Shown: one piece after another, positions 1-52,983 of the stretch
How positions within the stretch are numbered: position 1 is the stretch's first letter
Layout: each line of letters opens with the position of its first letter
Assembly (NCBI GenBank): GCA_951406725.2
Contig: OX597814.1
Span: 90,334,001 to 90,398,000 of the forward strand
Length of the DNA stretch: 64,000 nt
Direction of reading: 5' to 3'
From: Octopus vulgaris
Taxonomy: Eukaryota
The notes under the pieces: model-generated
What the model was told of the DNA's origin: nothing
The model's database searches: none
Seen by the model: only the letters and a program-made list of their open reading frames with translations
Position numbers and translations under genes: made by a program

Positions 1-39
1 ATTCGACTGAATGTTGCATGAAAGCCTTCAACCTATACT

Positions 40-1350
40 ATTCAACAATGAGCGCCATAAAGTTTAGAATTCTTTGTTTGGAATTCTCTAAAGGCACCAT
101 TATATTGCTTAGGATGAATGTATCTTCGCCACACATTTTATTTGATGTAATCATGGTTCGTATATGATTTCTATAGTCACCTTTTACTACATTAACAAAC
201 TAATTCTTTTAAGTTCTCACAATAAATAAACAGAGGTCACTAGAAGCAGGATCTCTAACATTATATTATGACGACTACATATATGTGGGTAAAATGTATA
301 CTTTAGTTTAGTTCACTTGATGCATCCCCTGTTCAGAATTAGAATATGCATATAATACCCACATAGGAGTACTTCATGTATTCAGAACAGAGCTGCTATT
401 GCCGGCAGAAATCGTCTAGTCAACTTGGAAGTGAATGCGACGATACTATCCTTTTGCAGGCTTGTCATCGTATAATTTGGATTATATTATCTATTAGGTC
501 CCTAAATTTTTAATAGAGTCACAGGGATTTGACAGAATGTAGATAATCAATGTTTTGGCGTTTATACTGATGTCTTAGAGAATTCCTCATTCGATCGAGT
601 GGTTTGTAAGATCAGTTAGCTTCTGGTTAATTCTGGCATATAATAGATCTCTGACGGATGATTTATAGCTGTAACTAAAACGTTTGTATTAGGGATATTG
701 AAATTGTCAGACAGAACACCATAAAATGGTTTGTGACTCGCGACGATTCCCTAAATAATGGGAATAGCAGTGGGTCACGATATTTCACCATCAATGAATG
801 CTTCCACGACATTCTGCCTTTATCTAAGTTCAAATTATAAATTCACTGTTTGCTAGTTAGAGGATAAAAACCAGTACTTTTTAAGAGGGGTTCCCTACCA
901 GATCCAATAGCTTTAAGGACACTAACAATTCGTCTCTCAAGGGTTACTTGGGTTATTTTTTAAATATTTATAGAAAGAGCTTTAGATTTTCTTTTTATCA
1001 TAAGGTGGTAGATTTTTGATCCATTATTTTTGTCCAGGATGTGACAGCGTTTGGGATTTTGAGATTACGGTGTTTCTGGAGCGATAATATTCCCTACTGG
1101 TTATAAGATCAATAGTGCATGTTTAATAGCGCAGTATATAATCCGCATTGTTGCATTCAGTAGGATGTTGATTTGGCCACAATAAGGTACAGTATTAATC
1201 TTCAATCCCATCGTGGTAGTCCTATTGTTTCACCGAGAGAGAAACCATGTGAAGCTGCGTGCCACTACTTTTTGACAAAACCTAGTTTTCGTAGTTTTCA
1301 TACCTTGAGTGTTTCTTTTACGTGTAATCTGCTTGATGAGATGAGACGAG
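40..1350 (-). pseudogene. Highly degraded possible Gypsy-type pol (RT/RNase H) remnant
   Basis: Minus-strand fragments in the expected order resemble Gypsy pol: 'LRKLGFVKK' (~1270-1300), 'PNAVTSWTKIMDQK' (~1012-1055), 'TGDAS' (RNase H TDAS-like, ~320) and 'KNSKLM' (~55-75). Many stops; the match is weak. Confidence 0.3.
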
Positions 1351-2367
1351 AATTATGAAGATAATTGCCATGTAGAACCGACTTGCAGCGGTAGGTCATC
1401 AATGCTTGGTAATTATTTCACGTAAAATAATTACCCATTAGTTGTTGAGAATTTCAAGCCAAATGAAGCAAATGGTGAAAATGTATATCATTAGTGGATA
1501 ATGGTCTGGCGGGTAATAAATAGAGAACTTTGGTGTGTAAGATAAATTTTAAGCCTTGTATTTAATGTCGAACATTAAATAGAAAACGGAATAGTGAAAT
1601 AAGCAATGGTGTAGGCTGTTACATGAGTTATATATATAAAATACTTTGAGAAAGACAAGAGAAAGTGAAATGAATATGCTAAGGGCGTTGATTTTTAAGC
1701 TGGGATGAGATTAGTTATTTCAAACTAGGAATTAAATTTGATTGGTTGAATGAAAGTTACAAGCTTTTACTCCTATTTGTTTTCTAAATAATTAACTCTA
1801 ATACAGAGCCCATAACCCTTAATTTCACAAACACATCATTCATTCGTAATGCTCAACATATGTAGGGTCCACCAGAATTTCAAAACTAAAAGCGTACCCT
1901 TAAAATAACTTCCTGTACTCTGTAACATATAGGGAAAAATTAAAGCGAATAAACTGAAAACAATTACCAATTAGCGAAATGGAACGTGCAACAATCCAAC
2001 AATTCGTATAATTTTTTTCTCCTTTTTCCGCAACTTATTTCGGGATGACTGAGAAAGGAGTTTACATATGAAGTTGCTATAGCAACTTTCTAAATACAAT
2101 TTTCATTTCAATATCTTATGATTAACTCATTAATTCTATTGATGTATTCCAATTTAATCTGGAAAGAAAATTAAGCATCAAAGGTCAATAAGAGCTTATA
2201 GAACAATTCTCTTTTCATTTGATTGGATTCATACAAACGTTCTACGATTAATAACATTCGTATATGTGTGTGAGTGTGTTTATATTTATATGTATGTGTG
2301 TGTGTGGTGTGTGTATGCGTGTGTATCGTCAATGCACACACAAACGCGCACGCAAATGCACTAACGG

Positions 2368-2401
<34 letters not shown>

Positions 2402-2605
2402 ATACATATATTTATAGGTACAAATAATTACACATGTTACATGTTCACAGGAACATAGTTACATAAATTAGAATAAAAAGAATTGAAATCATTTGGTTTG
2501 ATTTTCAAGACCCTTAATTGAAAAAGTAGATCGGACAAAACATATTTTGTGGGATTCGTTGTCTTAATAACTCATGCACACACATACTTACACGTACATA
2601 CATAA

Positions 2606-2698
<93 letters not shown>

Positions 2699-2699
<1 letters not shown>

Positions 2700-3136
2700 G
2701 GTTAAGTAATTGAGATTCTAGTGAATTCTAAAGAATTCACATGAATATGGTCCTTAACTAGGATGCACCGGAAATCTATATGATGTTAACCATACGACAA
2801 GTGGGGTGATTACAAATAGGAAAAAAGCAACAAGAATGGATTAAAATCTCGGTACGATCGTTTCGTACGAGGACATCTTTAATAAGCTACAAAAAATGCA
2901 GTGAATACAGATGGCTCGTACTCGTCAGCCGAAAAAACATCAGAGAATTCCCAAACATCAAAAGGGGTAGATACAAAAGAGGTTGTAAGATTAGCTGCAT
3001 TGAAGAAAGTTCGATTCATGGAGATCCGATGAAAGGTTTTAAACCTATAGAATTTATGCATTTTTTGTAGCTTATTAAAGATGTCCTCGTACGAAACGAT
3101 CGTACCGAGATTTTAATCCATTCTTGTTGCTTTTTT

Positions 3137-3141
<5 letters not shown>
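2699..3141 (-). mobile_element. 5'-truncated PLE-like 3' end with inverted terminal copy, inserted in (TA)n
   Basis: Perfect ~85 bp inverted repeat (2816-2900 vs 3057-3141), a complete hammerhead, and (TA)n on both sides. Confidence 0.7.
2847..2934 (-). ncRNA. Type I hammerhead ribozyme with canonical core and long stem II
   Basis: Minus strand reads UUUCGG-CUGACGA-GUACGAG...CUCGUAC-GAAA-CGAUCG-UA-CCGAGA. Stem I is 6 bp, stem II is 7 bp plus a CAUCU/AGAUG extension, and the stem III segment is palindromic. Confidence 0.85.
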
Positions 3142-3173
<32 letters not shown>

Positions 3174-3399
3174 GTAAAGAGTGAAAAAACTACAGAAGGC
3201 TTGTTTTATAAGGTTAAAGAATATATTTGAATCATTATATTACAAGAATGTTATAAATTTTTTTCATACAATAACATAGTTTTTGAAGAAATTACCGGTT
3301 TTGTGTTAACTTTTCAAAGTCAACCTCTTTGGTTGTTAGTTCCTTTTCATGGGTTTTAATTAGTGAAGACAGAGTTTTCATTATTTTTTGCGAGATGTA

Positions 3400-3698
3400 G
3401 TTGGTGCTCGGGCTGCCACCAAAACTACGTGGGGTCCACGGGACTATCACTTAGACGTAGATGCACTCTGCATCGACAACAGATTGCATTCCCAGAATAC
3501 AGAATGATACCCTATAGTGAGCATATTGAGAAATGCGCAAAGCAACTACTATCACAATTTTTAATCTTTCCATTCTATCAATGTGCTATTGGAACACCAA
3601 CACAAATTAGATCAAACAAGGAAACATTCTTCATTGAAAAATATAAGCCCAAACTTAACCACTCTAACATTCTTATACAGATAAACTCACCCCATTAA
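3400..3698 (+). pseudogene. PLE GIY-YIG endonuclease C-terminal fragment
   Basis: CSGCHQNYVGSTGLSLRRRCTLH...FPFYQC...KETFFIEKYKPKLN is clearly homologous to the 51229-52182 ORF. Confidence 0.8.
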
Positions 3699-3829
3699 AT
3701 AAAATGAAAAGAAATATAAAGCGATTATCTCCCTTATACCGGAAGAAATCGCTTATTACCTCCCCCTATCTGGAACTCTTCTATGTACTTCATAACGAAG
3801 ACATAACACGATGTAAATAAAGACATTTG

Positions 3830-3866
3830 AGAAATTTGAAAAGTTAACACGAAACAGCTAATTTCT
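3830..3866 (+). ncRNA. Minimal hammerhead ribozyme with U3-A8 variant core
   Basis: AGAAAU-UUGAAAA-GUUAACAC-GAAA-CAGC-UA-AUUUCU has a perfect 6 bp stem I. The inverted partner near 3290-3318 has the palindromic CCGG loop. Confidence 0.6.
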
Positions 3867-4028
3867 TCAAAAACTATGTTATTGTATGAAAAAAATTTAT
3901 AACATTCTTCTAACATGATGACTCAAATATATTCTTTAACCTTATAAAACAAGCCTTCTGTAGTTTTTTCACTCTTTACTATTTTCTATATATATTGAAC
4001 CACGTGCTTTCACACACCAACTTTCTCA

Positions 4029-9029: not shown

Positions 9030-9342
9030 GGAAGTAAGAGGAAAGGAGTAGTAGTTTAACGCTCGGGAAGGTGAGAAAGTATTTTACGCTGCCAGCCTAC
9101 GCTATTCAGCAGAAAGAAAGACGAGGAAACAAATAGAGTGAGAATAAAAGAAAACTCTTGCAGCTAGCGGTCATACACGCTTGCATTTAATTTTGTCAGC
9201 AGTGTGTTACGACTAAGGAAATTTATAATTGTCAACGAAATATGACTAGGGTGTTAGAAACACATACATTTCTAGTAATGTAGGTATGTCTTACACCCTG
9301 GTCACATGTGTATATGTGTATATGTGTATATGTGTATATGTA

Positions 9343-9407
<65 letters not shown>

Positions 9408-9410
<3 letters not shown>

Positions 9411-11136
9411 GCGGCGACGATAGATTACATCGATATAAAGGAAGACGATGTAACCAAGGCTATAGATGAAATGAAAACAGACTCAGCTACTGGCCCCGAT
9501 GGATTCCCGGCAATCCTCCTAAAAGCATGTAAGAGAGTCCTAGCAAGACCATTGCAGTTCCTCTTTCAGAGCTTCCTTGCAGCTGGCAAACTTCCAGGAA
9601 AACTGAAGGAAGGTAAAATATGCCCCATTCATAAAGGAGGTAGCAGAGCGGAAGCCAAGAACTATAGACCTATCTCTCTGACCTCACACATCAGCAAGGT
9701 CATGGAACGAATAGTCAGAAGGAAGCTGATCACCTTCCTTGAAGAGAATGACTTGCTGCCCGACACCCAACATGGTTTCCGACCAGGGAGAAGCTGTTTA
9801 ACTCAGCTCCTACAACACTATGACTGGGTGCTGAAACGGCTGCTCAACCACTCAAATGTGGAAGTGATATATCTCGACTTTGCAAAGGCCTTTGATAAAG
9901 TCGATCATGGAATGATATATCACAAACTGCGTGATCTCAACATAGTTGGAAAACTGGGAGAATGGCTTCATGACTTTCTGAAGGATAGAAGTCAGGTGGT
10001 AGTAGCCAATGGGGCCACCTCCATTAACACACAAATAGTGAGCGGTGTTCCGCAGGGCACTGTTCTGGGACCACTACTGTTCATAATGGCCCTCTCAGAC
10101 ATGCCCTCAGCCACGCAGAGAGCCACGATCACAAGTTATGCAGATGATACAAAAGTTTCACAGGCAATACAGAACCCTGAGGACACTAAACACCTGCAAT
10201 GTGAGCTGGACGAAATATACAAGTGGGCTGAAAAGAATAGAATGCAGTTCAATGATGGAAAGTTTCAAGCTTTATACTATCAGCATGCAAAACGGAATGC
10301 AATACCCAATGAATACACTGGACCCGGAGGGATTGCAATCCCAGAGGCACAATCAGTGCGTGACCTGGGTATTCACATGAGTGATGACGCGAACTTTCAT
10401 GTACATGTTGCTAAACTGACAATGAAATGTAGACGGCTGGCTGGATGGATTCTTAGAACCTTTAGAACAAGAGAACAAGAAACCCTGATGGTCCTCTGGA
10501 AGACACTTGTCCTAAGCCACTTTGACTATTGCTCTCAGCTATGGTCACCATCCAGTGTCAAGTTGATCACAGAACTTGAGGCGATCCAACGAAGCTACAC
10601 AAAGAAGATAGCCTCTATGCAGAATGTAAGCTACTGGGAAAGACTCAAGAGATTAAAATTATATTCCCTGGAGCGTAGGCGGGAAAGATATGCCATAATA
10701 TACATCTGGAAGATCCTGGAGGGAAGTGTCCTGAACTTTGGCATCGAGAGTTACGCAAATGCCAGAACTGGGCGCCACTGCGTGGTGCCTAGGACTCCAA
10801 ACCTGCCATCAAGATGTAGGACAAGATTCTGTGATAGCCTGGGCTTCCGAGGCCCACAGCTCTTCAATATCCTCCCGAAGAACCTGAGAGACCTGCATGG
10901 GGTGGATACAGATGTCTTTAAAATGAAGCTGGATCTCTTCCTGTCAGGTGTCCCAGATGAACCAACTTCACGGCAGGAGGGGCAGAAGAGGGCAGCTGCA
11001 TCGAACTCTCTCATGCACCAAATAGCAGTTGCTAGAAAGCCTCCATGAAGTGAAACCAAGTAGCAACACCAAATGGCGGTGCCCCAGCATGGCCACAGCT
11101 CATAAGCTGAAACTAGAATCAATCAATCAATCAATC
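9408..11136 (+). mobile_element. 5'-truncated CR1-group LINE (RT domain and C-terminus open) with (AATC)n tail
   Basis: Uninterrupted frame to 11048 with NYRPISLTS, QHGFR, YLDFAKAFDKV, GVPQG, YADDTK and SLERRR. The 3'UTR ends ggcggtgccccagcatggccacagc...(aatc)5. The element sits in (TA)n; the ORF-track N-terminus (9306-9407) is microsatellite. Confidence 0.92.
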
Positions 11137-11192
<56 letters not shown>

Positions 11193-11196
11193 GCAT

Positions 11197-11261
<65 letters not shown>

Positions 11262-11265
<4 letters not shown>

Positions 11266-14200
11266 CCTTAAATCCTTAAAAATGTTTTAGCCTGAAGGCC
11301 GCGGCCATGCTGGGGCACCACCGCTGAATGAGCTACACTAGTTTGTGAATCCACCTCTGATACGTGGCACTTGATCAACAAGGGAGTTCGATGCTGCTGC
11401 CCGCATCCGTGTCTCCTGTCGTGAGGTAGGTTCATCTGGGACTCCCAACAAGAAGAGATCCAGTTTAGTTTTAAAGAAACCCACATCCACACCATGTAAG
11501 TCTCTCAGGCATTTAGGGAGGATGTTAAAGAGCTGTGGTCCTCTGAAACCCAAGCTGTTGCAGTATCTGGACCTGTATTTTGATGGTGATGTTGGAATCC
11601 TTGGCACCACGCAGCGGCGCCCGTTCTGCGGTTGGAGTAACTTTGAATGCCAAAGTTTGGGACAAGACCCTCCAGGATTTTCCAGATGTATATCACTGCA
11701 TATCTCTCCCGCCTCCGCTCCAGGGAGAAGAGGTTTAATACCTTCAGTCTTTCCCAGTAGCTGACATTTTGCATTGAGACGATTTTCTTTGTGTAGCTTC
11801 TCTGAGTTGCTTCGAGTTCTGCTGTTTGTTTTATATTGTGTGGTGACCAAAGTTGGGAGCAGTAGTCCAAGCGGCTGAGGACAAATGTTTTCCATAGGAC
11901 CATCAGTGTCTCCTTCTCTCTTGTTCTGAAAGTTCGGAGAATCCATCCAGCTAGCCGTCTGCATTTTATCACCAGATTAGCAATATGCATTTGGAAAGAT
12001 GCATCATTGCTCATGTCAATGCCCAGGTCACGCACTGATTTTGACTCAGGGATTGCAATTCTTCCTGGACCAGTGTATCCAGTCTTCACGTCATTTACCT
12101 TTGTGTGCCAGTAGCGCAGGGCCTGGAACTTACCTGCATTAAACTGCATGTTGTTGTTCTCAGCCCACCTGTATATTGTGTCCAGCTCATGTTGCAGATG
12201 CGCAATATTTTCAGGGTTTTGTATTGCGTGGGAGACTTTTGTGTCATCTGCATAGCTAACAAGGGTGGTCATCGTAGCAACTGAAGGCATGTCTGAAAGG
12301 GCCACTATGAACATCAGTGGCCCCAAGACAGTGCCCTGTGGGACACCGCTTGTTATTTGCGTTTCCCTGGAGGTGGCTCCATTGCTCACAACTGCCTGCT
12401 TTCTGTCTTTTAGGAAGTTGTGCAGCCACTCTCCAAGTTTCTCGCCTATGCCGAGACCACGCAGTTTGTGACAGATCATACCATGGTCGACTTTATCAAA
12501 GGCTTTTGCAAAGTCAAGATATATTACATCCACATTTGAGCCATTTAGTAGCTGTTTCAACACCCAGTCATAGTGTTGCAGGAGCTGTGTTAGGCAGCCT
12601 CTAACTGGTCGAAATCCATGCTGGGTGTCAGACAGTAAGTCATTTTCTTCAAGGAACATGATTAGTTTCTTACGGACTATTCGTTCCATGACTTTGCTGA
12701 TGTGTGAGGTCAGAGAGATAGGCCTATAATTTTTAGCATCTGCTCTGCTGCCTCCCTTATGGATAGGGCATATTACCCCCTCTTTCAGTTTGACTGGGAG
12801 CTTACCACTTGCAAGTAAGCTCTGAAAAAGAAGCTGTAGCGGTTTTCAAGGGCTCGTTTGCACGATTTGAGAAGGATCGCTGGGAATCCATCAGGTCCAG
12901 CAGCTGAGTTTGTGTCAATCTCATCAATGGCTAGTGTGATATCATCTTCTTCGATGTTGATGCACTCAATTATTGTCTCTTTGGCCGCTGGTAAAGTGGC
13001 AAAGAATTCTTCTGGGTTGTTTACTTGCCTGTGTCCTAGAGGTGTAGTGAACACACTTTGGAACTGTTCGTTCAGTATTTCACTTATCCTCGTGGGATTT
13101 CCTGTGAGAGAGCCATCTTTTTGGAAGAGAGGTCCTATTCTCTGGTGCACTGTGGCTGTCTCTTTGGCAAACTTAAAGAAAGCTTTAAGGTTTGATTTTA
13201 TATTTTCTATTACCCAAGCTTCTTTATCTGCTCTCTCCTTTTCATGGGACTGATGTAGACTTTTCTCAGTTTCCATTAGCATTCTTTCGAGCCGAGACTT
13301 CTCACCACTTTTGGTGTGCTTGCTCAGGCGGTTTGCAATCCTTGTCCGTCGTCTCATAAGAATCCTCCTTTCTCTAGGGATCCTGTTTTTGTTCTTGTGT
13401 GTGCTGGCCCTGCACATTGGGACATATTTGTCACATATGGCTTGTATTATGGACATGAAGTGTTTGTGTTTCATGTTTATGTCCGGTGTGGAGAGACATT
13501 CAGGCCAATCCTGTTTGAGGATCTCTTTCTCAATCGACTTTCAGTTGGCTTTATGAAAGTTTAAGTTGGAGAGATGGTGGGTGCTTCGTATAGGCTGTGT
13601 GTCTGCGGGGGCTTTTGTTCCATACATAGACAGCTCTATTATGTTGTGATCCGAGATCATTGTCGGCATCACATTAACATTATGGATAATATCCATATTG
13701 TTTGTGAAGCAGAGATCCAGTATATTATCTGCCCTTGTTGGTTGCAGAACTATTTGCTCCATGAAAGAGGCATTTGTGAGATGGAGCAGGGACTCCACCT
13801 GTGCCTGCTGATGGTGTGTCATCCCTGGGAGCATCTGCCCCCCCAGGCCATTCCACATTGGGGAGGTTAAAGTCACCCATGAAGAATACACTGTTGTGCT
13901 GTTCAAGGTTGGTGAGGACTTCTCCTATTTTTGTTAGGCAGTCTTCAAACATGCCTGAGTGTTTTGGGGCATCTGGTGGGCGATATGTAGTGCATATGAC
14001 GATATTCAGTTGTCTTATGTGTACAATTTGAGTTTCACATACTGAGTTTGAATATGACAGCAGGACCTGGGGCGTGAGGTCATCTCGGATGTACATTGCA
14101 ACTCCACCATGGCTCCTCCCTTTTCTATCTGTGCGTATGATTGCATATTGCGGCATGTGTATTTCTGCATCACCTATATCGGGTTCAAGATGCGTTTCTG

Positions 14201-14560
14201 TGAGTGCCATGCATATAGCTTGATTGCAAGTCAAAAGGTCTCTCAGGAATGAAATTTTCTTTTTACAGTTTCCGCGCAGCAGCCCTCCTACATTCAGTAG
14301 AAATATTTTTGTGGTGTGTGTGTTGGTGTCTGTGGTGGCCATCCTGCATCTGTTGAAGGTGGCCTTATGTGGTGGTAGTTCCAGCTTTGTGCTTGTAGCC
14401 ATGTCAGCTGCTGAACAATTTTTTGTGCCATGCACAAAAAAGACTGCTGTTCAGCTGCCGCCCTTCTCACATCTGGGTGAAGCTGGCCACCTGTTGGGTT
14501 TCCGCGCACCACATCTGCATACCGTCTTTCATTAGTGGTCAGTGCGCTTTTTTCCCTTCT
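11262..14560 (-). mobile_element. Near full-length CR1-group LINE ORF2 (APE endonuclease + RT), frameshifted
   Basis: APE motifs (LNVGGL, LTETHL, GGVAMY, YRPP, GDFN, NILDL, SDHN) lie in ORFs 13725-14435 and 13541-13906. RT motifs lie in 12785-13474 and 11505-12689, and the C-terminus in 11338-11964. Several frameshifts; the 3'UTR motif is shared with the 9408 element. Confidence 0.92.
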
Positions 14561-24799: not shown

Positions 24800-25421
24800 G
24801 CTAGATGGTAACATGTTTTTATATTTTCATTTCTTTCCTGTCGAATTTTATCCCTCATTTTGTGGTTATAGAACCTAACTGTTCTTTCTAGCGTGTTGAA
24901 TCCCATGAGTAGATTCCTCTTATGCGTTTAAATGTACACTGTATTTTATGAGTAATACATACTCTTTGGACTAAATTTTTACATGCTAGGCCACTGGAAG
25001 TGAAAATTTCTATTAATTTCCATTTCCCTTTGATATGATTAAGTATTGTAAGTTTTTGGATAATTTTTGATTTTTAAAAGTTGGCATTTTTTATTGCCGG
25101 CGAAGGGCTGCGTCTACGCAGAAAATTTTGAAAAAATTAGGATGTATAAACAAGAGGCGCATAGTTGATCGCCTCGTGTTTATATATTTAATCTAAGGTG
25201 TACCCGTTGAGAACGATTTCACCTAACGGGTAAATGTCATTTACTTGCAAAACTAAAATCAGAAACCAATTGGTCCAGGAAGCTAGATGGTAAAATGTTT
25301 TTATATTTTTATTTCGTTCCTGTTGAATTTTATCCCTAATTTTGGGGTTATAGAACCTAACTGTTCTTTCTAGCGTGTTGAATCCCACGAGTGGATTCCT
25401 TATGTGTTTAAATGTACACTG
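24800..25421 (+). repeat. ~140 bp direct repeat pair
   Basis: gctagatggtaa...gtttaaatgtacactg occurs at ~24800-24941 and ~25281-25421. Confidence 0.85.
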
Positions 25422-25422
25422 C

Positions 25423-25470
<48 letters not shown>

Positions 25471-25479
25471 TATAGAAGG

Positions 25480-25530
25480 AGCTTCTACAGGACTAGAACT
25501 GTTTCATTCAAGAGAAATCTTCAGGAAGCT
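25480..25530 (-). ncRNA. Type I hammerhead ribozyme (inverted copy)
   Basis: Exact reverse complement of 31156-31206. Confidence 0.8.
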
Positions 25531-26121
25531 AGTTAACAAGAATTGTATTGGCATTTATACATTTAGGCAGGTTTAAAGGGGTGTTGGTGGGGGACTTTTT
25601 GGGGGTAGGCATAGCGCAAAATATCATACTTGGGGGAGTGGTCAAGGAATCAGTGTTAAATTAGATTAAATTAGATAGAAGAATAAATAAAAAGATAAAA
25701 AATATATATAAAAAAAGGGAATAGGGTTTTAGGTAAATAAAGAGATTCTCACTTATACCTATGCACATATGTATACATATATACACACACATATACAAAC
25801 ATATATACATATACATACACACATACACACACACACATATATATACATATATATATACACTTACACATACATATACATATCTACACATTCACATATATAT
25901 GTATACATACACACACTCACATGCATACACGTATACACGCATGTATATATACACACACGACCACACATACATATACACACAGAAAAATATATATACACAT
26001 ACACACACATACACACATACACGCATACACACACATATCCACACACACACATGCACACACAGCACACTAGTCCCTATATACACATATATACACAAACACA
26101 CATATATACACACACATACAT

Positions 26122-26175
<54 letters not shown>

Positions 26176-27339
26176 GTGTACCTATGCATACCTACACATA
26201 CACACATATATATATACACATACAAATACAGACCCATTCCCTAATTTTGATTTTATTATCTTCATTTATTACTTTTGTTATCTTTGACGACTGGTCACAA
26301 ACATCTTGGCTATGACAGCCAGTCCATTTGTCTGTCTACTTGAAAACAAGCACTCATTCACTCACGCACACTCTTTAGCACGTACACTCACTCATTCGTA
26401 CACTCATACACATACACGCACGCACGCGTTATATTCATACATACATACATCTACATACATTCACGTATATACACATACGTACGCGTACCTACAGATTCAT
26501 GTCTACACTCTTAGAAGGCTAGTCTATATATATGCAACAATAAATATAAATACACACACATACACAAACACCTACATACAAATACATACATGTATATATA
26601 TATATATATATACACACACATATATTCACATATATATACATATACATATATATATATACATATATATATATATACATATACACATAACACATACATACAT
26701 ATATATACACACATACACATACATACATATACACACATACACATACATACGTATACATACATACATACATCCATACATCCATACATACATACATTTATAC
26801 ACATACACACACCCACACGTATACATATATATACATATATATATACGCGCCTGCATACACATACAAATACATACACATACGCATATACATATACATACAT
26901 ACACCTACACACATACATATATATATATACATATATATACATATACATATATATATATATATACATATATATACATATATATATATATACACATATATAC
27001 ATACACACACATACACATACATACATACATATACAAATATACGCACACACATACATACAAACTCATATACACATACACGCATATACACATGTACATGCGT
27101 ACCCATACACACACACACACACACGCGCATCCATATATACACATAAGTACACACATGCGTAAAAGTATACATATATCTATGCTTACACATACACACACAC
27201 ACACGCGCCTCCTTATATTCATACTTACATGCTTACTCAGAAAATAAGTAAATAGTAAAATATATATACACGCAGTTATTCATACATGCATACTCAAAAA
27301 ATAAATAATAAATAATAAATAATAAATATTAAGTATATC

Positions 27340-27474
27340 TGCATATCGGAGAGCCTAGAGATCTTGTTCGCCAAAGGCCCTCTCCTTAACAAATTTTCAG
27401 AACACTCCCCAAATTGCATGCATAAGAAGTATGCGAACTACAAGAACTATAGACCTACCCGGCAACCAGATTGA
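27340..27474 (+). pseudogene. C-terminal tip of a Neptune-like PLE ORF
   Basis: Translates CISESLEILFAKGPLLNKFSEHSPNCMHKKY...*, resembling the post-GIY-YIG motif LCLxEKxxI...LLNKRSE...KCRH. Begins right at the inversion junction; too short for the ORF track. Confidence 0.6.
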
Positions 27475-27635
27475 TGACACCCCACCCTCAAAACCCCCCA
27501 ATCCCACCGTTCCCCTAGCACCCCCGATTACCTTTTCTCCTAAGACCTTTCACATATTGTATGTGCACGCTTGTATATGCGTATCGTATATATGTATAGA
27601 AATGTATGGGTATAGTAGGAATATACGCATGTATT

Positions 27636-27668
<33 letters not shown>

Positions 27669-28096
27669 AAAAAAAAAAAATATATATATATATATATATA
27701 TGTATGTGCGTGTGTGTGTGTGTGTGTGTATATATGTATATATGTATATATGTATATATGTGTGTATGCATATGTATGTGTATATGTATGTGTGTATGTA
27801 TGTGTATGTATGTATAAAATATTATATAATTAGGGCTTAGTAAAATAAATTACTTTGCCACATACTGAACTTTCTAGAAAAATCAGCCAAAAAAGTTTTT
27901 TAGCCTCTTTCACTACTTAGAGAATATTTTCTCTTAGACATTGTTAACTCAAAAAAATAATGGTCCTTTTACATACTGAATACTTGGTGAAATTGATTAA
28001 TAACTAATTAACTTTACCCTCAATTGTTGATATATGTATGTGTGTATATATGTATGTGTATGTGTATATGTACATGTATGTATATGTGTATGTGTG

Positions 28097-28189
<93 letters not shown>

Positions 28190-28418
28190 ATGTGTATTAT
28201 GTATATATTTATGTATATATGTATATGTATATGTATGTGTGTGTGTATATGTATGTGTGTGTATATATATGTATGTGTGTGTATATATACGCGAGTATGT
28301 CGATGTATATGCAGGTATGTAGAGTTATGTGTATGTGCATGTATGTGAGTGTAGATACAAATTGTAGATGTGTATATATGTATGTGTGTGTATATATACA
28401 TGTATATAGGTATATGTA

Positions 28419-28473
<55 letters not shown>

Positions 28474-28966
28474 GCGGGTATGTAGAGATATAAGTATGTG
28501 CATGTGTATATATATGTATAGGTATGTGTATGTGTATGTATGTATATATATATGTGTGTGTATGTGTATGTGGGTATATGTATGTATATATGTATATATG
28601 TGTATATGTGTACGTGTGGGTATATATGTGTATGTATATGCATATATGTGTGTGTATGTGTATGTGTGTATATGTGTATATATATATGTATGTATATATA
28701 TGATTGTATGTGTAAATGTATATGTATGTGTATATATGTATATATGTGTATGAGTGAATATGTGTATGTATGCATATATGTATGTATGTATGTATGTATG
28801 TATATGTGTATGTATACATGTGTGTAAATGTGTGTATTTATGTATATGTAAGTGTGTGTGCGTGTATGAGTATGTATGTATGTTTGCACACATGTATATG
28901 TGTGTGTATGTGTATATATATATATGTATATATATGCATATATATATATATATGTTTATGTATATG

Positions 28967-28997
<31 letters not shown>

Positions 28998-29224
28998 GTG
29001 TGTATGCGTATGTATGTATGTGTATATATATGTGTGTGTATGTGTATGTGTATTTGTACATATACGTGTACGCTCGTGTGTTTATGTATATGTAGGTACG
29101 TAGAGTATTCTATGTGTGTATGTATTTGTACATGTGTGTAAGTATGTATATATGTATATATATATATGTGTGTATGTGTGTGTGTGTATATATATGTATG
29201 TGTGTATGTGTATATATATGTGTA

Positions 29225-29292
<68 letters not shown>

Positions 29293-30000
29293 GTTTATAT
29301 GTATGTATCCGTCTATATAATAGGTAACTGCACGTACATATACTTAATATTTATTATTTATTATTTATTATTTATTTTTTGAGTATGCATGTATGAATAA
29401 CTGCGTGTATATATATTTTACTATTTACTTATTTTCTGAGTAAGCATGTAAGTATGAATATAAGGAGGCGCGTGTGTGTGTGTGTATGTGTAAGCATAGA
29501 TATATGTATACTTTTACGCATGTGTGTACTTATGTGTATATATGGATGCGCGTGTGTGTGTGTGTGTATGGGTACGCATGTACATGTGTATATGCGTGTA
29601 TGTGTATATGAGTTTGTATGTATGTGTGTGCGTATATTTGTATAAGTATGTATGTATGTGTATGTGTGTGTATGTATATATGTGTATATATATATATATG
29701 TATATATATGTATATATATATATATATATATGTATATGTATATATATGTATATATATATATGTATGTGTGTATGTGTATGTATGTATATGTATATGCGTA
29801 TGTGTATGTATTTGTATGTGTATGCAGGCGCGTATATATATATATGTATGTATATGTATACGTGTGGGTGTGTGTATGTGTATAAATGTATGTATGTATG
29901 GATGTATGGATGTATGTATGTATGTATACGTATGTATGTGTATGTGTGTATATGTATGTATGTGTATGTGTGTATATATATGTATGTATGTGTATATGTT

Positions 30001-30041
<41 letters not shown>

Positions 30042-30509
30042 GTATATGTATATATATGTGAATATATGTGTGTGTATATATATATATATATACATGTATG
30101 TATTTGTATGTAGGTGTTTGTGTATGTGTGTGTATTTATATTTATTGGTGCATATGTATAGACTAGCCTTCTAAGAGTGTAGACATGAATCTGTAGGTAC
30201 GCGTACGTATGTGTATATACGTGAATGTATGTAGATGTATGTATGTATGAATATAACGCGTGCGTGCGTGTATGTGTATGAGTGTACGAATGAGTGAGTG
30301 TACGTGCTAAAGAGTGTGCGTGAGTGAATGAGCGCTTATTTTCAAGTAGACAGACAAATGGACTGGCTGTCATAGCCAAGATGTTTGTGACCAGTCGTCA
30401 AAGATAACAAAAGTAATAAATGAAGATAATAAAATCAAAATTAGGGAATGGGTCTGTATTTGTATGTGTATATATATATGTGTGTATGTGTAGGTATGCA
30501 TAGGTACAC

Positions 30510-30565
<56 letters not shown>

Positions 30566-31155
30566 ATGTATGTGTGTGTATATATGTGTGTTTGTGTATA
30601 TATGTGTATATAGGGACTAGTGTGCTGTGTGTGCATGTGTGTGTGTGGATATGTGTGTGTATGCGTGTATGTGTGTATGTGTGTGTATGTGTATATATAT
30701 TTTTCTGTGTGTATATGTATGTGTGGTCGTGTGTGTATATATACATGCGTGTATACGTGTATGCATGTGAGTGTGTGTATGTATACATATATATGTGAAT
30801 GTGTAGATATGTATATGTATGTGTAAGTGTATATATATATGTATATATATGTGTGTGTGTGTATGTGTGTATGTATATGTATATATGTTTGTATATGTGT
30901 GTGTATATATGTATACATATGTGCATAGGTATAAGTGAGAATCTCCTTATTTACCTAAAACCCTATTCCCTTTTTTTATATATATTTTTTATCTTTTTAT
31001 TTATTCTTCTATCTAATTTAATCTAATTTAACACTGATTCCTTGACCACTCCCCAAGTATGATATTTTGCGCTATGCCTACCCCCAAAAAGTCCCCCACC
31101 AACACCCCTTTAAACCTGCCTAAATGTATAAATGCCAATACAATTCTTGTTAACT

Positions 31156-31206
31156 AGCTTCCTGAAGATTTCTCTTGAATGAAACAGTTCTAGTCCTGTA
31201 GAAGCT
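31156..31206 (+). ncRNA. Type I hammerhead ribozyme
   Basis: AGCUUC-CUGAAGA-uUUCucuuGAAu-GAAA-CAGuucuagucCUG-UA-GAAGCU. Stem I is 6 bp; stem II is 3 bp after a U.U pair; stem III is 3 bp plus A-U. Confidence 0.8.
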
Positions 31207-31289
31207 CCTTCTATATAATAAATTATTTTTACTCTGCTATGTATTGAGTACCTTATTTACTGTGGTTAACTCCGAATCAACCCGGGACC

Positions 31290-31331
<42 letters not shown>

Positions 31332-41888: not shown

Positions 41889-41941
41889 GCGCCTGAAGAA
41901 TATGTTCGAGTACTCTCAAAATATGAAACTTTTAGTAGCGC
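41889..41941 (+). ncRNA. Type I hammerhead ribozyme with canonical core
   Basis: GCGC-CUGAAGA-AUAU...AUAU-GAAA-CUuuuAG-UA-GCGC; all three stems pair. It lies ~90 bp upstream of a (TA)n. Confidence 0.8.
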
Positions 41942-42216
41942 TTTAATATATGTATTGTGACCTTTAAATAATAATATTTATGTCACCAGATGGAGTACTT
42001 TTTTGTTGAATATTGTATCACGGACCAGTACATTATATATATATATAATATGTTTGTCGAATTCCTATCACGTCTGTATGCGATTTCAAATACGCCATTA
42101 CTCTTTCGCTTAAAATAATCATGGCGGTACTATACCTTGAAGACTCACAGGGCTATTCAACAGTATAATGAAAGAGAGCAAGCGACTCCAAAAACGGAAG
42201 ACTACATACTCATGCA

Positions 42217-42257
<41 letters not shown>

Positions 42258-42724
42258 GCATAAGCTAACACATACATAGAAATAATATAACCTACATGTT
42301 AGCGTGTAATTTTCTGATATAATTTTCATACTATAAAAGGTCATGCATACGCTGCTTTCAAGTAACAATACAATACGCACTTACGCACACACACACACAC
42401 ACACACACAAGCGCATGTGCACACACAGACACAGATACAGACATAGACAAAAACATAGGTATAAATATATATATGCAACAACATTTTGTAAACAAGGTTT
42501 GGAAGCGTTGACTGTTTCGTATATTACGGAGAGCAATGTAATATTTCCAACGAAGTATAGCCGTGAAAACAGCAGGACGATTGGGTATTTTACCCTTATA
42601 AGACGAACAAATTTTCTCAGACTTAGTATACAGACACACACACACACGCACGTACACACACACACACACACATATGTATATACATGTGTATATTTTCTTC
42701 TCTCATGCCTTCGCTCCAGGGACT

Positions 42725-44040
42725 AAAGCTGTAGTTTTCTCAGTCTATCTCTGTAGTTCATCGGCTCCACTGTTTCAATCTTTTTAGTGTAGTGGCGTTG
42801 GACTGCTTCAAGCTCCGTAGTTAGTTTGGCACTATGTGATAACCATAACTGAGAGCAGTAGTCCAGGCGGTTGAGAACAAAAGTTCTCCACACGGTAAAC
42901 ATCATTTCGTGGTTTCTTGTCTTGAAGGACCTCAGTATCCATCCTGCCAGTTGTCTGCACTTTGCTGCCATCTTGCTTATGTGTATCTGAAATGCTGCGT
43001 CATTGCACATACTCATCCCCAAGTCTTTCACTGCCTGTGACGCTGGGATTGTAGTGCCTTCCGGTCGTGTAAATATAGATTGTACCATATTTGTGAGTTG
43101 ATAGTGTTGTGCTTGAAATTTTCCAGCATTAAACTGCATGTTGTTTATTTCATCCCACATGTATATTGAGTTCAGGTCCCGCTGTAAGCTTGTGACATCA
43201 TCTTGGATTTTTATTTTCTGTGCTAATTTCGTATCATCGGCATAGCTAGTGACAGTGGCATCGGACTAATCGTGGGCATTTCTAAGAGGGCTGTTATGAA
43301 CAGTAATGGCCTCAGAACAGTTCCCTGGGGAACACCACTTAGGATTTGAGTTTTCTCAGAAAGGGTGTGATTGGCTGCAATTACCTTTTTTTAAGGAAGT
43401 CATACATCCAGTCTCGCAGTTCACCAGCAATGTCAAGTCTCATAGCTTATGATTTATCATACTATGATCTACCATATCTAATACCTTTGCGAAGTCAAGG
43501 CGTATCACACTGGCATCCGAATGGTCAAGCAGCTGTTTCAAAACCCAGTCATAGTGCTGTATGAGCTGTGTGAGGCAGCTTTTTCCTGGATGGAAGTCAT
43601 GTTCAGTAGGAAATTTTCTACTGGGAACATTATCGACTTCTTTCTGCAGATTCGCTCCATGACTTTAGTGATATGCGAAGTCAGAGAGATTGCACTGTAG
43701 TTTTTAACCTCTGCACTGCTTCCACTTTTGTGGATAGGGCATATAATACCTTCTTTCAGCTTTTTATGAAGTATACCACTTGCAAGGAGAAACTGGAAAA
43801 CTATCTGAAGATATTTCGCTGAAGCCTGCTTATATGACTTTAGCAGAAGAGCTAGGGAGCCATCAGTACCAGTGGCGGAGCATGAGCTCGTTCTATGTAT
43901 GGCCACCGTTACATCTGTTTCTTCAATGTTTTCTAGAGTTGCAATTTCTAAGAATTCAGGCTGATTCTTTATCTGCTTGTGTCCAAGGGGAGAAGTCAGG
44001 ACATTTTAAATTGTTCACTGAGTATCTCAATTATTCTTCC
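42725..44040 (-). mobile_element. Degraded CR1-group LINE RT fragment
   Basis: NNMQFNAGKFQ, LAGWILRSF, RLDYCSQLW and KNYSAISLTSHI; same family as the 9.4-14.6 kb elements. Confidence 0.88.
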
Positions 44041-51165: not shown

Positions 51166-51315
51166 TAAATAAATATATATATAAACAATATTCATACACA
51201 GAATATACACAGAAATATTCATACATAGATGCATACATACAACGTTCGTACATACATACATACGTACATACATACATACACACACACTCACATATATATA
51301 TATATATATATATAT

Positions 51316-52983
51316 CAATACCTCCTCTTTAGTTCATGCCACCCAAAACACACCAAGACAAATATCCCTTTCAATTTAGCTAAAAGGGTATGCACCATTG
51401 TCTCGGATCCAAAAACACGAGAAATACGCCTTCAAGACCTCAAAAAAACACTATTACAACGTCAATATCCCTCCACCCTTATAGAGTATGGAATAAAACG
51501 CGCCAAAGAACTAGACAACACTACACTGAAAACCACCCAACCTAACACCACACACAACCTCAAAATACTTCCATACATTTCCACCCACAACCCCAAAAAT
51601 ATCGAAGCATACACCACAATCATACAAAACCTCAGTCTACTGTCAACAGACCCAAAAATGAAAAACATTATAAATACACACAAAATCCTCAAATGCAAAA
51701 GGCAACACAAATCTTTAAAAAAACTCTTGACAAATGCCAAACTTCACACACCACATCCACCCCCAACAGTAAAAAAATGTGCACGCTCAAACTGTGGTAC
51801 CTGCCCCTTTCTACTTGAAGGCTCTGAATTTACCTTCAAACAAGGTACGAAGTTTAAAATCAAGACTAACTTCTCCTGTTCCTCCGAGAACCTTATCTAC
51901 GTTCTCACATGCGCTGGTTGCCAACATAATTATGTTGGACAAACGAGTCTCCCGTTACGTAAACGAGTAACGGTGCATAAAGAACAAATAAATCTCCCGG
52001 AATACCGACAAATTCCACTGAGTGACCACTTAGACTCATGTGCTAAAGACTTAAACCCCAAATTCTATATATTCCCCTTCTACCAATGTAAAGACGGGAT
52101 CACCACACAGGAGAGAATTAACAAGGAGAATCTCTTTATTGAAAAATTCCAAACACAACTTAATATGCAAACTCCTCGTTGATCAAACTTCCTTTCTCTA
52201 CCTCACTCTTCATGGATGGACTAACACAAATATATAAAGATACCATGCATTCATCACTTCAAGCTAAAACTTATATTCTTTAAATATCATTTTTACTATT
52301 GTTGTTATTACTATCATTTTTATTATAAATGATATGACAATTTGAAATGCAATTGTCTATGCAGATTTATATTATTAGAAAATAATATAAATAAAGTGTT
52401 AAAATCTGAAAGTTAAGTTAACAAGCAATTATATAAAAAAGATAATGCAAATGAAGCTAAAATGATAGTTTTATAATTTGGGTTTTATTGAAGAACTCAA
52501 AAGAGTTGTCTCCCCTTACTCACAACACAAGAACTGAAGAACCAGGACCACAATTACTACTACTTCCTGTCCTGCAAACATGCTGAATTTAACAACACAA
52601 CACAACACATGCTCTTAATCCCTTTGGATCTTAACACCTCAAGGTAATTTTTTCGTAAACAACCATAAAACTCAAGATACACAACGAACTCACAATGTAT
52701 CGGAGAACTTATTTTTTAATTTTTGCACATTTTTATCATTATTCTTTTACAAAAAACAATGCAATTTTCTTTTTTTCCCCTTTCTAATTTAAAAAAAAAC
52801 TTCTTAAAACATAAATATTCTTGACAAGTCATACAATGACGAAAACCGGTTGAATAAATATATATTTATATATTTTATCAATTTCTAATTTTCTTTCATT
52901 TGAGCATTCTGCATTTTTAAAAAAAATTTTTCCTTACTTATCATTTCTCCACGTGCGGTCAACACAACCCCACCATTTATTGA

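Follow-up and report, generated by a model that had tools for sequence, protein, structure and literature searches.

The 64,000-nucleotide (nt) window analysed here, from Octopus vulgaris (assembly GCA_951406725.2, contig OX597814.1, forward-strand positions 90,334,001 to 90,398,000), contains at 25460–31291 a fold-back insertion of a Penelope-like element (PLE) that is present in a few thousand copies and whose 3′ region is mostly microsatellite mosaic, ~3.5 kb of it downstream of the ORF. The insertion is 5′-truncated and the mosaic is an inherited part of its 3′ region. We consider it probable that the two head-to-head arms arose from two primings of complementary DNA (cDNA) on sense RNA at a (TA)n tract.

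That this seemingly low-complexity DNA is one ordered fold-back had been claimed earlier from the letters alone (hereafter the sequence-only reading), and our analysis bears this out. Unmasked self-BLAST of the window paired 25460–27338 with 31226–29338 at 98.4% identity (1894 columns, score 3263); the runners-up within the window were ~70% repeat noise. Arm A (25460–27338, (−) strand) is an inverted, 5′-truncated copy of the 3′ region that ends at a short, tail-less end. Arm B (29338–31226, (+) strand) is the part of the forward copy that it mirrors, and a global alignment of the two arms contained 10 substitutions and 8 indels, with 7 of the 8 indels in or beside dinucleotide runs. Between the arms lie 1.86 kb of unmirrored spacer and, at 27340–27474 (+), the proposed PLE-like open reading frame (ORF) tip, whose 44 codons and stop are 97.8% identical to the end of the intact family ORF at locus L066, which encodes a 713-amino-acid reverse transcriptase (RT)/GIY-YIG protein. 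Arm A and the ORF tip share 1 base at their junction, at 27338. A 65-nt tail (31227–31291, (+)) follows arm B only and is without a partner in arm A; in tandem copies it continues into the ORF start. The element has (TA)n target tracts at both outer ends (25425–25459 and 31292–31327), and every resolved end of the family adjoins (TA)n. From the ORF tip, the forward copy runs through a spacer of TA/TG microsatellite mosaic (27475–30929, (+)), which holds unique islands at 27475–27560, 27805–28030, 29305–29475, 30140–30450 and 30590–30660 (all (+)), into a unique pseudo-long terminal repeat (pLTR) core (30930–31226, (+)) with promoter motifs and a hammerhead. Downstream of the stop codon, 77% of the 3,817 bases (27475–31291) are purine/pyrimidine-alternating mosaic, versus 12% in the rest of the window, and both long ORFs cited in the sequence-only reading (26306–27247 (+) and 29429–30379 (−)) are open frames of the repeats themselves. 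If a published octopus rate of 0.0036 per million years (PMC13282606) applies to the 0.5% difference between the arms, the insertion would be <1 million years old, although assembly error could inflate this age.

We searched for the family in the window's own 2.8-Gb assembly, where a first look gave 1202 candidates for the 3′ island (30930–31226; top 40 at 93–100%) and 508 for the ORF tip. Exact patterns matched 4097 hammerhead cores, 2388 tail ends on (TA)n and 1515 short ends on (TA)n genome-wide, with 0 matches to reversed-pattern controls; the short-end pattern is strict and passes over variants, arm A of the window among them. Forty 10-kb stretches had a single island order of ORF tip, four islands, pLTR core and tail, and other loci held the same islands with the same irregular mosaic between them, as expected had microsatellite been carried as cargo of the element, which is what the sequence-only reading proposed. 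Compared as run-compressed 10-mers, homologous segments shared a median of 54–79% between loci (five segments, 26–38 loci each), non-homologous segments shared 0–19%, and at most 11% was shared with 11 unrelated mosaic windows. The whole 3′ region of the window was colinear with copies on other chromosomes, at 84% over 1–3953 (L070) and at 91–97% in pieces (L061/L100 and L062). The mosaic 3′ region measured 3.3–4 kb and the median length from tip to tail was 3.8 kb in 17 copies, while among the 29 copies with both ORF tip and pLTR core none spanned under 2.2 kb.

These comparisons bear on the alternative that an element with a short untranslated region (UTR) was inserted, that the UTR expanded locally into microsatellite, and that the arms were produced by an inverted duplication afterwards. 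Such mosaics are indeed abundant in the host, with a 12% background, and segment lengths do vary among copies, as this account would have it. However, the mosaic aligns along 3.95 kb with copies on other chromosomes and shares their interruptions, short copies spanning tip and core are absent from the sample just described, and the one-tail fold-back recurs at dozens of loci, which leaves such an origin extremely improbable. Because the irregularities of the mosaic and their order are common to several chromosomes, we rejected local expansion; the mosaic is inherited between chromosomes. Subfamily C, whose ORF has 87–91% amino-acid identity and whose pattern has 101 exact matches, carried a different 2.7-kb mosaic in the only 2 stretches, out of 20, that extended to the ORF end, and this mosaic shared 0–5% with the window and ~50% among its own long copies.

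The sequence-only reading further suggested that the family would spread complex microsatellites. The mosaic does move with the element, but its share is small. Within the first 46.3 Mb of contig C1, paired copies cover ~90 kb, of which ~49 kb is mosaic (0.1%; this figure is a lower bound, with unpaired loci left out and nested insertions counted). Set against a background of 12% mosaic in 52 kb of flank, this makes the family a minor microsatellite source, supplying ~1% of the genome's mosaic DNA. The family also shows that 3 kb of dinucleotide mosaic is within the reach of an RT; repeat-masking pipelines would split and hide such a mosaic. Other retroelements are nested in the mosaic of L061/L100, L062, L083, L084 and L096, and the island end at 27960–28030 is also found outside the element beside (TA)n (L012, L083, L137) and may be a captured piece of another repeat.

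We found that the head-to-head arrangement is the normal product of the family. An ordered sample was built from the first 100 hammerhead matches in genome order, which gave 57 fetched stretches and, with two more, 59 in all. Head-to-head pairs were present in 46 of these (28 of 260 bp or less, 18 of 0.5–9.8 kb), and exactly one tail was present in 46/46 pairs, none having two or none; two short ends with a substitution were classed by eye. A further 16 one-tail pairs were found among 40 tip-selected stretches, one of them shared with the ordered sample. Both arms of one insertion belonged to the same subfamily. Their median difference was 1 in the 311-bp island (20 pairs, none above 4) versus 12.5 between loci, so both arms come from one source. 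Arm junction positions differed at each locus. The recurrence of the fold-back throughout the family, each time with a junction of its own, shows that it is no local duplication, in agreement with the sequence-only reading. Short reiterated sequence (A-rich runs, a repeated 5-mer or a duplicated ORF piece) was seen at the arm junctions of L074, L086, L090, L063 and L135, which suggests RT stutter at U-rich template stretches. By extrapolation, the inverted repeats left in the genome, kilobase-scale and short ones alike, would each number on the order of a thousand, and these are possible substrates for double-stranded RNA or cruciform formation.

Four public DNA runs, available as short contigs, gave no cover on the repeat side of the 27338 junction and were uninformative as to its spanning. 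That the inversion is an assembly or read-chimera artefact is very improbable in view of the 2 kb of unmirrored sequence that separates the arms, the 10 substitutions and 8 indels between them, their asymmetry by the 65-nt tail and the variation of junction positions by locus. In addition, in a contig from an independent public run a loose fold-back end lay at this same boundary of the hammerhead, and both (TA)n-joined ends were present as well.

The sequence-only reading had placed the same hammerhead near the outer end of each arm, and motifs of identical sequence are indeed present at 31156–31206 (+) and 25480–25530 (−; core at 25524). Each agrees with the type I layout listed for elements of the Hydra clade (PMC8557442), with the core and three stems present and common variants altering only N7 and loops II and III, and cleavage is predicted after 31200 (+). 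Folded alone, the motif formed stems I and III at −8.5 kcal/mol, with the canonical layout at −7.3; with flanks, an alternative fold was preferred that was no better than shuffles (z −0.83), and Rfam did not detect the hammerhead at the gathering threshold or by E-value. As far as its layout indicates, then, the family pLTR carries a hammerhead motif with a predicted cleavage site. A second hammerhead-like motif in the window (41889–41950 (+)) has three plausible stems and is unrelated in sequence to this PLE family.

The first base of the motif coincides with a sharp 5′ boundary of short copies. In the position-ordered sample of 105 hammerhead-bearing arms, 49 ran on upstream and 56 stopped near the hammerhead; 54 of these 56 ended at or inside 31156, the first base of stem I, and 26 matched exactly up to it. 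The same stop occurred in non-palindromic joins and at the start of the full-length copy L176. A TATAAA box (31127–31132 (+)) lies 29 bases upstream of the boundary (23-nt spacing), and this spacing was kept in 124 of 127 arms including those of the diverged subfamily C, in which the intervening bases differ. Its counterpart in arm A (25554–25559 (−)) faces leftward out of the element, and a promoter role for it is likewise presumed. These features suggest that 31156 is the transcription start behind the TATA box, and hence the RNA 5′ end. Genome-wide, at least 575 palindromes were centred on the 31156 boundary versus 2 near the predicted cleavage site, and we therefore rejected hammerhead-cleaved RNA as the template; one tandem unit (L160) begins at the predicted cleavage site. 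An extra cap-derived G at the 5′ boundary was suggestive in a few junctions, is confounded by palindromic joins and was not counted as evidence. A sigma-70 promoter scan was blank, its model being irrelevant to a eukaryote. We also considered the mosaic as a retained intron ending just 5′ of the hammerhead, a position for which the D. virilis Penelope intron is a precedent (PMC4209133), but this was unsupported, and splice joints were not found in the contigs of four putative RNA runs.

Taken together, we favour a model in which the element protein would nick both strands of a (TA)n tract and each nick would prime cDNA on the sense RNA, one at the tail end and the other 65 nt further in. Transcription would begin at 31156, behind the TATA box, and the cDNAs would pass through the pLTR core and the mosaic, growing towards each other, to stop at unrelated points (in the window at 1.9 kb and at 3.95 kb, the latter reaching into the ORF tip) before their ends were joined with little or no homology. 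Because priming would occur downstream of the hammerhead, the stretch from the stop codon to the pLTR core would have to be copied, and the mosaic would ride along. If the more 5′ of the two copies of these sites were used instead, both cDNAs would run off the RNA 5′ end and so yield 200-bp palindromes. The ~200-bp palindromic minis that we observed (L101–L120, L139–L147, L151) are without a TATA box and may be such run-off products. There is a precedent in vitro: the Poseidon element PAc nicks both strands of its target and extends each of them, and starts at two adjacent internal sites whose spacing equals the tail, with uncleaved RNA as template (PMC11167929).

The distribution of tails is informative with respect to a different origin, in which an antisense transcript or a first cDNA snaps back and is copied, and endonuclease-mediated resolution leaves the tail at one end; the mosaic would be inherited in this case as well. 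One published proposal for head-to-head pLTRs is self-priming on an antisense template (PMC3846280), and one for the tail is resolution by the endonuclease (PMC8557442). Near-identity between arms of one insertion, the containment of the window's arm A as a sub-sequence of the long arm, and short reiterated sequence at several junctions are all compatible with snap-back copying. However, among the 32 longer pairs scored (L089 was left unscored), 12 had their tail on the longer arm and another 12 had it on the shorter one, while 8 had arms that were alike. In the tail-on-short pairs, which are 12 of the 24 asymmetric ones, the long arm holds ORF or spacer sequence that is missing from the short arm, and neither arm is contained in the other. 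Neither can then be a copy of the other, and simple copying cannot yield them. The even split of tails between shorter and longer arms favours two primings of cDNA on sense RNA, and the sharp boundary behind a sense-strand TATA box also points to a sense template. We regard snap-back copying as unlikely.

Several observations weigh against the two-primer model. The data are assembled contigs, and neither an RNA 5′ end nor a cDNA intermediate nor an empty target site was seen in them. Since the long arm contains arm A, a fold-back copy would account equally well for the window taken alone. Only one end was seen in 13 of the 59 ordered stretches, so that pairing may not extend to every insertion. 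Selection of the samples, by exact 24-mer match or by their resemblance to the window, is biased towards young copies. Exact stops at 31156 were often in palindromic joins, where a self-complementary 4-mer could act as microhomology, and PAc belongs to another clade. The left flank of the window contains a 150-bp direct duplication (24800–24949 and 25282–25429, 91%) whose second copy breaks at the (TA)n beside arm A; an empty target site rebuilt from a short duplication in this flank was rejected, as the right flank does not carry it on. The origin of the inverted pLTRs and one-sided tail of PLEs has been named as open (PMC8557442, PMC11167929), and thousands of young insertions, a strict one-tail rule, a defined 5′ boundary and intact ORFs make the two-primer model testable in the genome and in vitro.

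The intact 713-amino-acid ORF was found in L066 and L177, the former being a partial tandem of 3′ region, tail, intact ORF and 3′ region; L071 is also a partial tandem. At ~40% identity, 1118 relatives of the protein were found, nearly all of them without a name. Its structural model reached a predicted local distance difference test score (pLDDT) of 93.8, and its seven best PDB fold matches are telomerase RT, while Pfam and PDB sequence searches with the ORF and alignments returned chance matches only. A GIY-YIG domain C-terminal to the RT is indicated by a VY...YIG motif at residue 587 and by precomputed PF01541 annotations on two relatives. RWR is present at 38 and DKT at 116, with no DKG (116 and 119 of 120 relatives match), and CxCX5C, CxxC and CxH motifs lie at 567, 667 and 695; the GIY-YIG core holds one cysteine only and there is no CCHH. 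The partial tandems, inverted arms and single tail are the pLTR organization of endonuclease-positive (EN+) PLEs, and the direct joining of both tail ends and short ends to (TA)n is the insertion preference of the Hydra clade. The family departs from the Hydra tendency to short length (<3 kb), since its ORF is 2.1 kb and is followed by the long 3′ region; short length is a tendency and not a criterion in PMC8557442. Set against published descriptions, the window holds a 5′-truncated copy of an EN+ PLE with Hydra-clade motifs.

Other assignments were rejected. For the Neptune and Nematis clades, the ORF had no match to the CX2-5CxxC linker and no CCHH; for Naiad and Chlamys, the endonuclease is C-terminal here and a hammerhead motif is present. 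The window locus does not fit a non-LTR retrozyme, as it is an inverted pair with an ORF tip and not a series of tandem units, and only an array on C8 fits that description. This array (L158:609-8895; C8:91.475–91.483 Mb) consists of ~30 tandem 271-bp units, five inverted and the rest forward, each unit comprising TATA box, hammerhead, tail and the first 92 bases after the tail. Its two ends on (TA)n are a tail end and a short end; the array is retrozyme-like, with the same head-to-head layout.

The mosaic is also polarised by strand. Its sense strand was G-rich in 8/8 blocks of the window and in 8/8 blocks of the subfamily C mosaic, whereas 13 background blocks were G-rich and 19 C-rich. Derived interruptions in anchored TA runs inside the element numbered 28 TG versus 0 CA (54 versus 4 by a looser count), although low-complexity anchors can group non-homologous TA runs; flanking target tracts were without TG bias (14 TG, 27 CA). 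One conceivable cause is adenosine-to-inosine (A-to-I) editing of self-complementary (UA)n runs in the transcript, with RT fixing G, which would turn (TA)n into sense-polarised TA/TG mosaic in each round. Editing of repeats is widespread in coleoids (PMC9068888), and if the idea held, RNA editing plus retrotransposition would make compound microsatellites. We nonetheless think it quite doubtful. No A>G excess was found in the ORF or islands, arm-private changes ran opposite to editing (A>G 2, T>C 9), and the same bias is predicted by slippage in an inherited tract that was polarised beforehand, which is the simpler reading. In favour of editing, contigs from two putative RNA runs that carry another organism code (X9 and X17) had minor A>G variants, mostly after T, at L066:3513-3585, and at three of these sites G was absent from more than 100 genomic copies. 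Depth in putative RNA runs was not taken as evidence of expression.

Elsewhere in the window, 51229–52182 (+) holds an ORF fragment with a cysteine-rich linker and a GIY-YIG-like end, which we take to resemble a canonical PLE of another clade, and several frames like the RT and endonuclease of long interspersed nuclear elements lie at 9279–14450 and 42723–44005.

The insertion belongs to a known class, although it is unusually large and regular for it, and many of the features described here have been published. Inverted pLTRs, tails, hammerheads, (TA)n targeting, carriage of simple sequence repeats (SSRs) by Penelope and the captured spacer of Pen1_Av are all on record, and the sequence-only reading was right to call hammerheads, inverted 5′ copies and a one-sided tail established for PLEs. 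In a full-text literature search, with most subscription papers and Repbase/Dfam outside its scope, we found no description of a 3′ region with 3 kb of mosaic, no counts behind the one-tail rule, no mini palindromes formed by run-off and no suggestion that compound microsatellites stem from editing. Recently active Penelope insertions average ~5.5 kb in an octopus annotation, and a curated repeat library may already hold such a family.

The closest likeness is to the Hydra clade as described in PMC8557442 (Hydra-1_Obim, Penelope-13_HM), which has a single ORF with RT followed by a C-terminal GIY-YIG, the motifs RW[KR], DKT, CxCX5C, CxxC and CxH, a hammerhead ~100 nt from the 3′ end, and (TA)n insertion; Penelope-13_HM also has a 5′-truncated inverted copy attached. 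Because the hammerhead differs from that of Hydra-1_Obim, the octopus elements are another family. Listed Hydra consensus sequences are 1.1–3.0 kb, whereas the unit here is ~5.5–6 kb because of the mosaic, and the family thereby doubles the size range known for elements of Hydra type. In Adineta vaga, Pen1_Av and Pen2_Av (PMC3846280) likewise have an inverted 5′ pLTR, a tail on one inverted pLTR, and TATA and initiator-like pLTR motifs. Pen1_Av carries 0.9–1.5 kb of captured host DNA as a spacer before the 3′ pLTR, differing between 90%-identical copies, which parallels subfamilies A/B versus C here. Unlike the Pen1_Av spacer, the one in octopus is 2.7–3.5 kb, mostly microsatellite, strand-polarised and present at many hundreds of loci, while the rotifer families have few copies.

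PAc of Anolis (PMC11167929) resembles our family in its two adjacent internal RT starts, nicking and extension of both strands, AT-rich target and uncleaved template. Its start sites lie 111–118 nt into the ORF, in contrast to ~50 and 115 nt upstream of the ATG here, and in the excerpts of that source the two sites are not tied to the two arms of one insertion. Two copies of a penaeid shrimp Penelope that are over 98% identical share SSRs in order (PMC7878876), and CR1-L3 in snakes is a case of microsatellite seeding by a retrotransposon (PMC6050309). The octopus family is unlike both in that most of its non-coding part is a single compound mosaic of ~3 kb, which the fold-back duplicates and which accounts for a small share of the genome. 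Finally, non-LTR retrozymes (bioRxiv 10.64898/2026.07.22.740005) are non-coding, hammerhead-bearing derivatives of PLE pLTRs, a description that the 271-bp C8 array fits, whereas the window locus and the 200-bp minis are inverted pairs and not tandem arrays.

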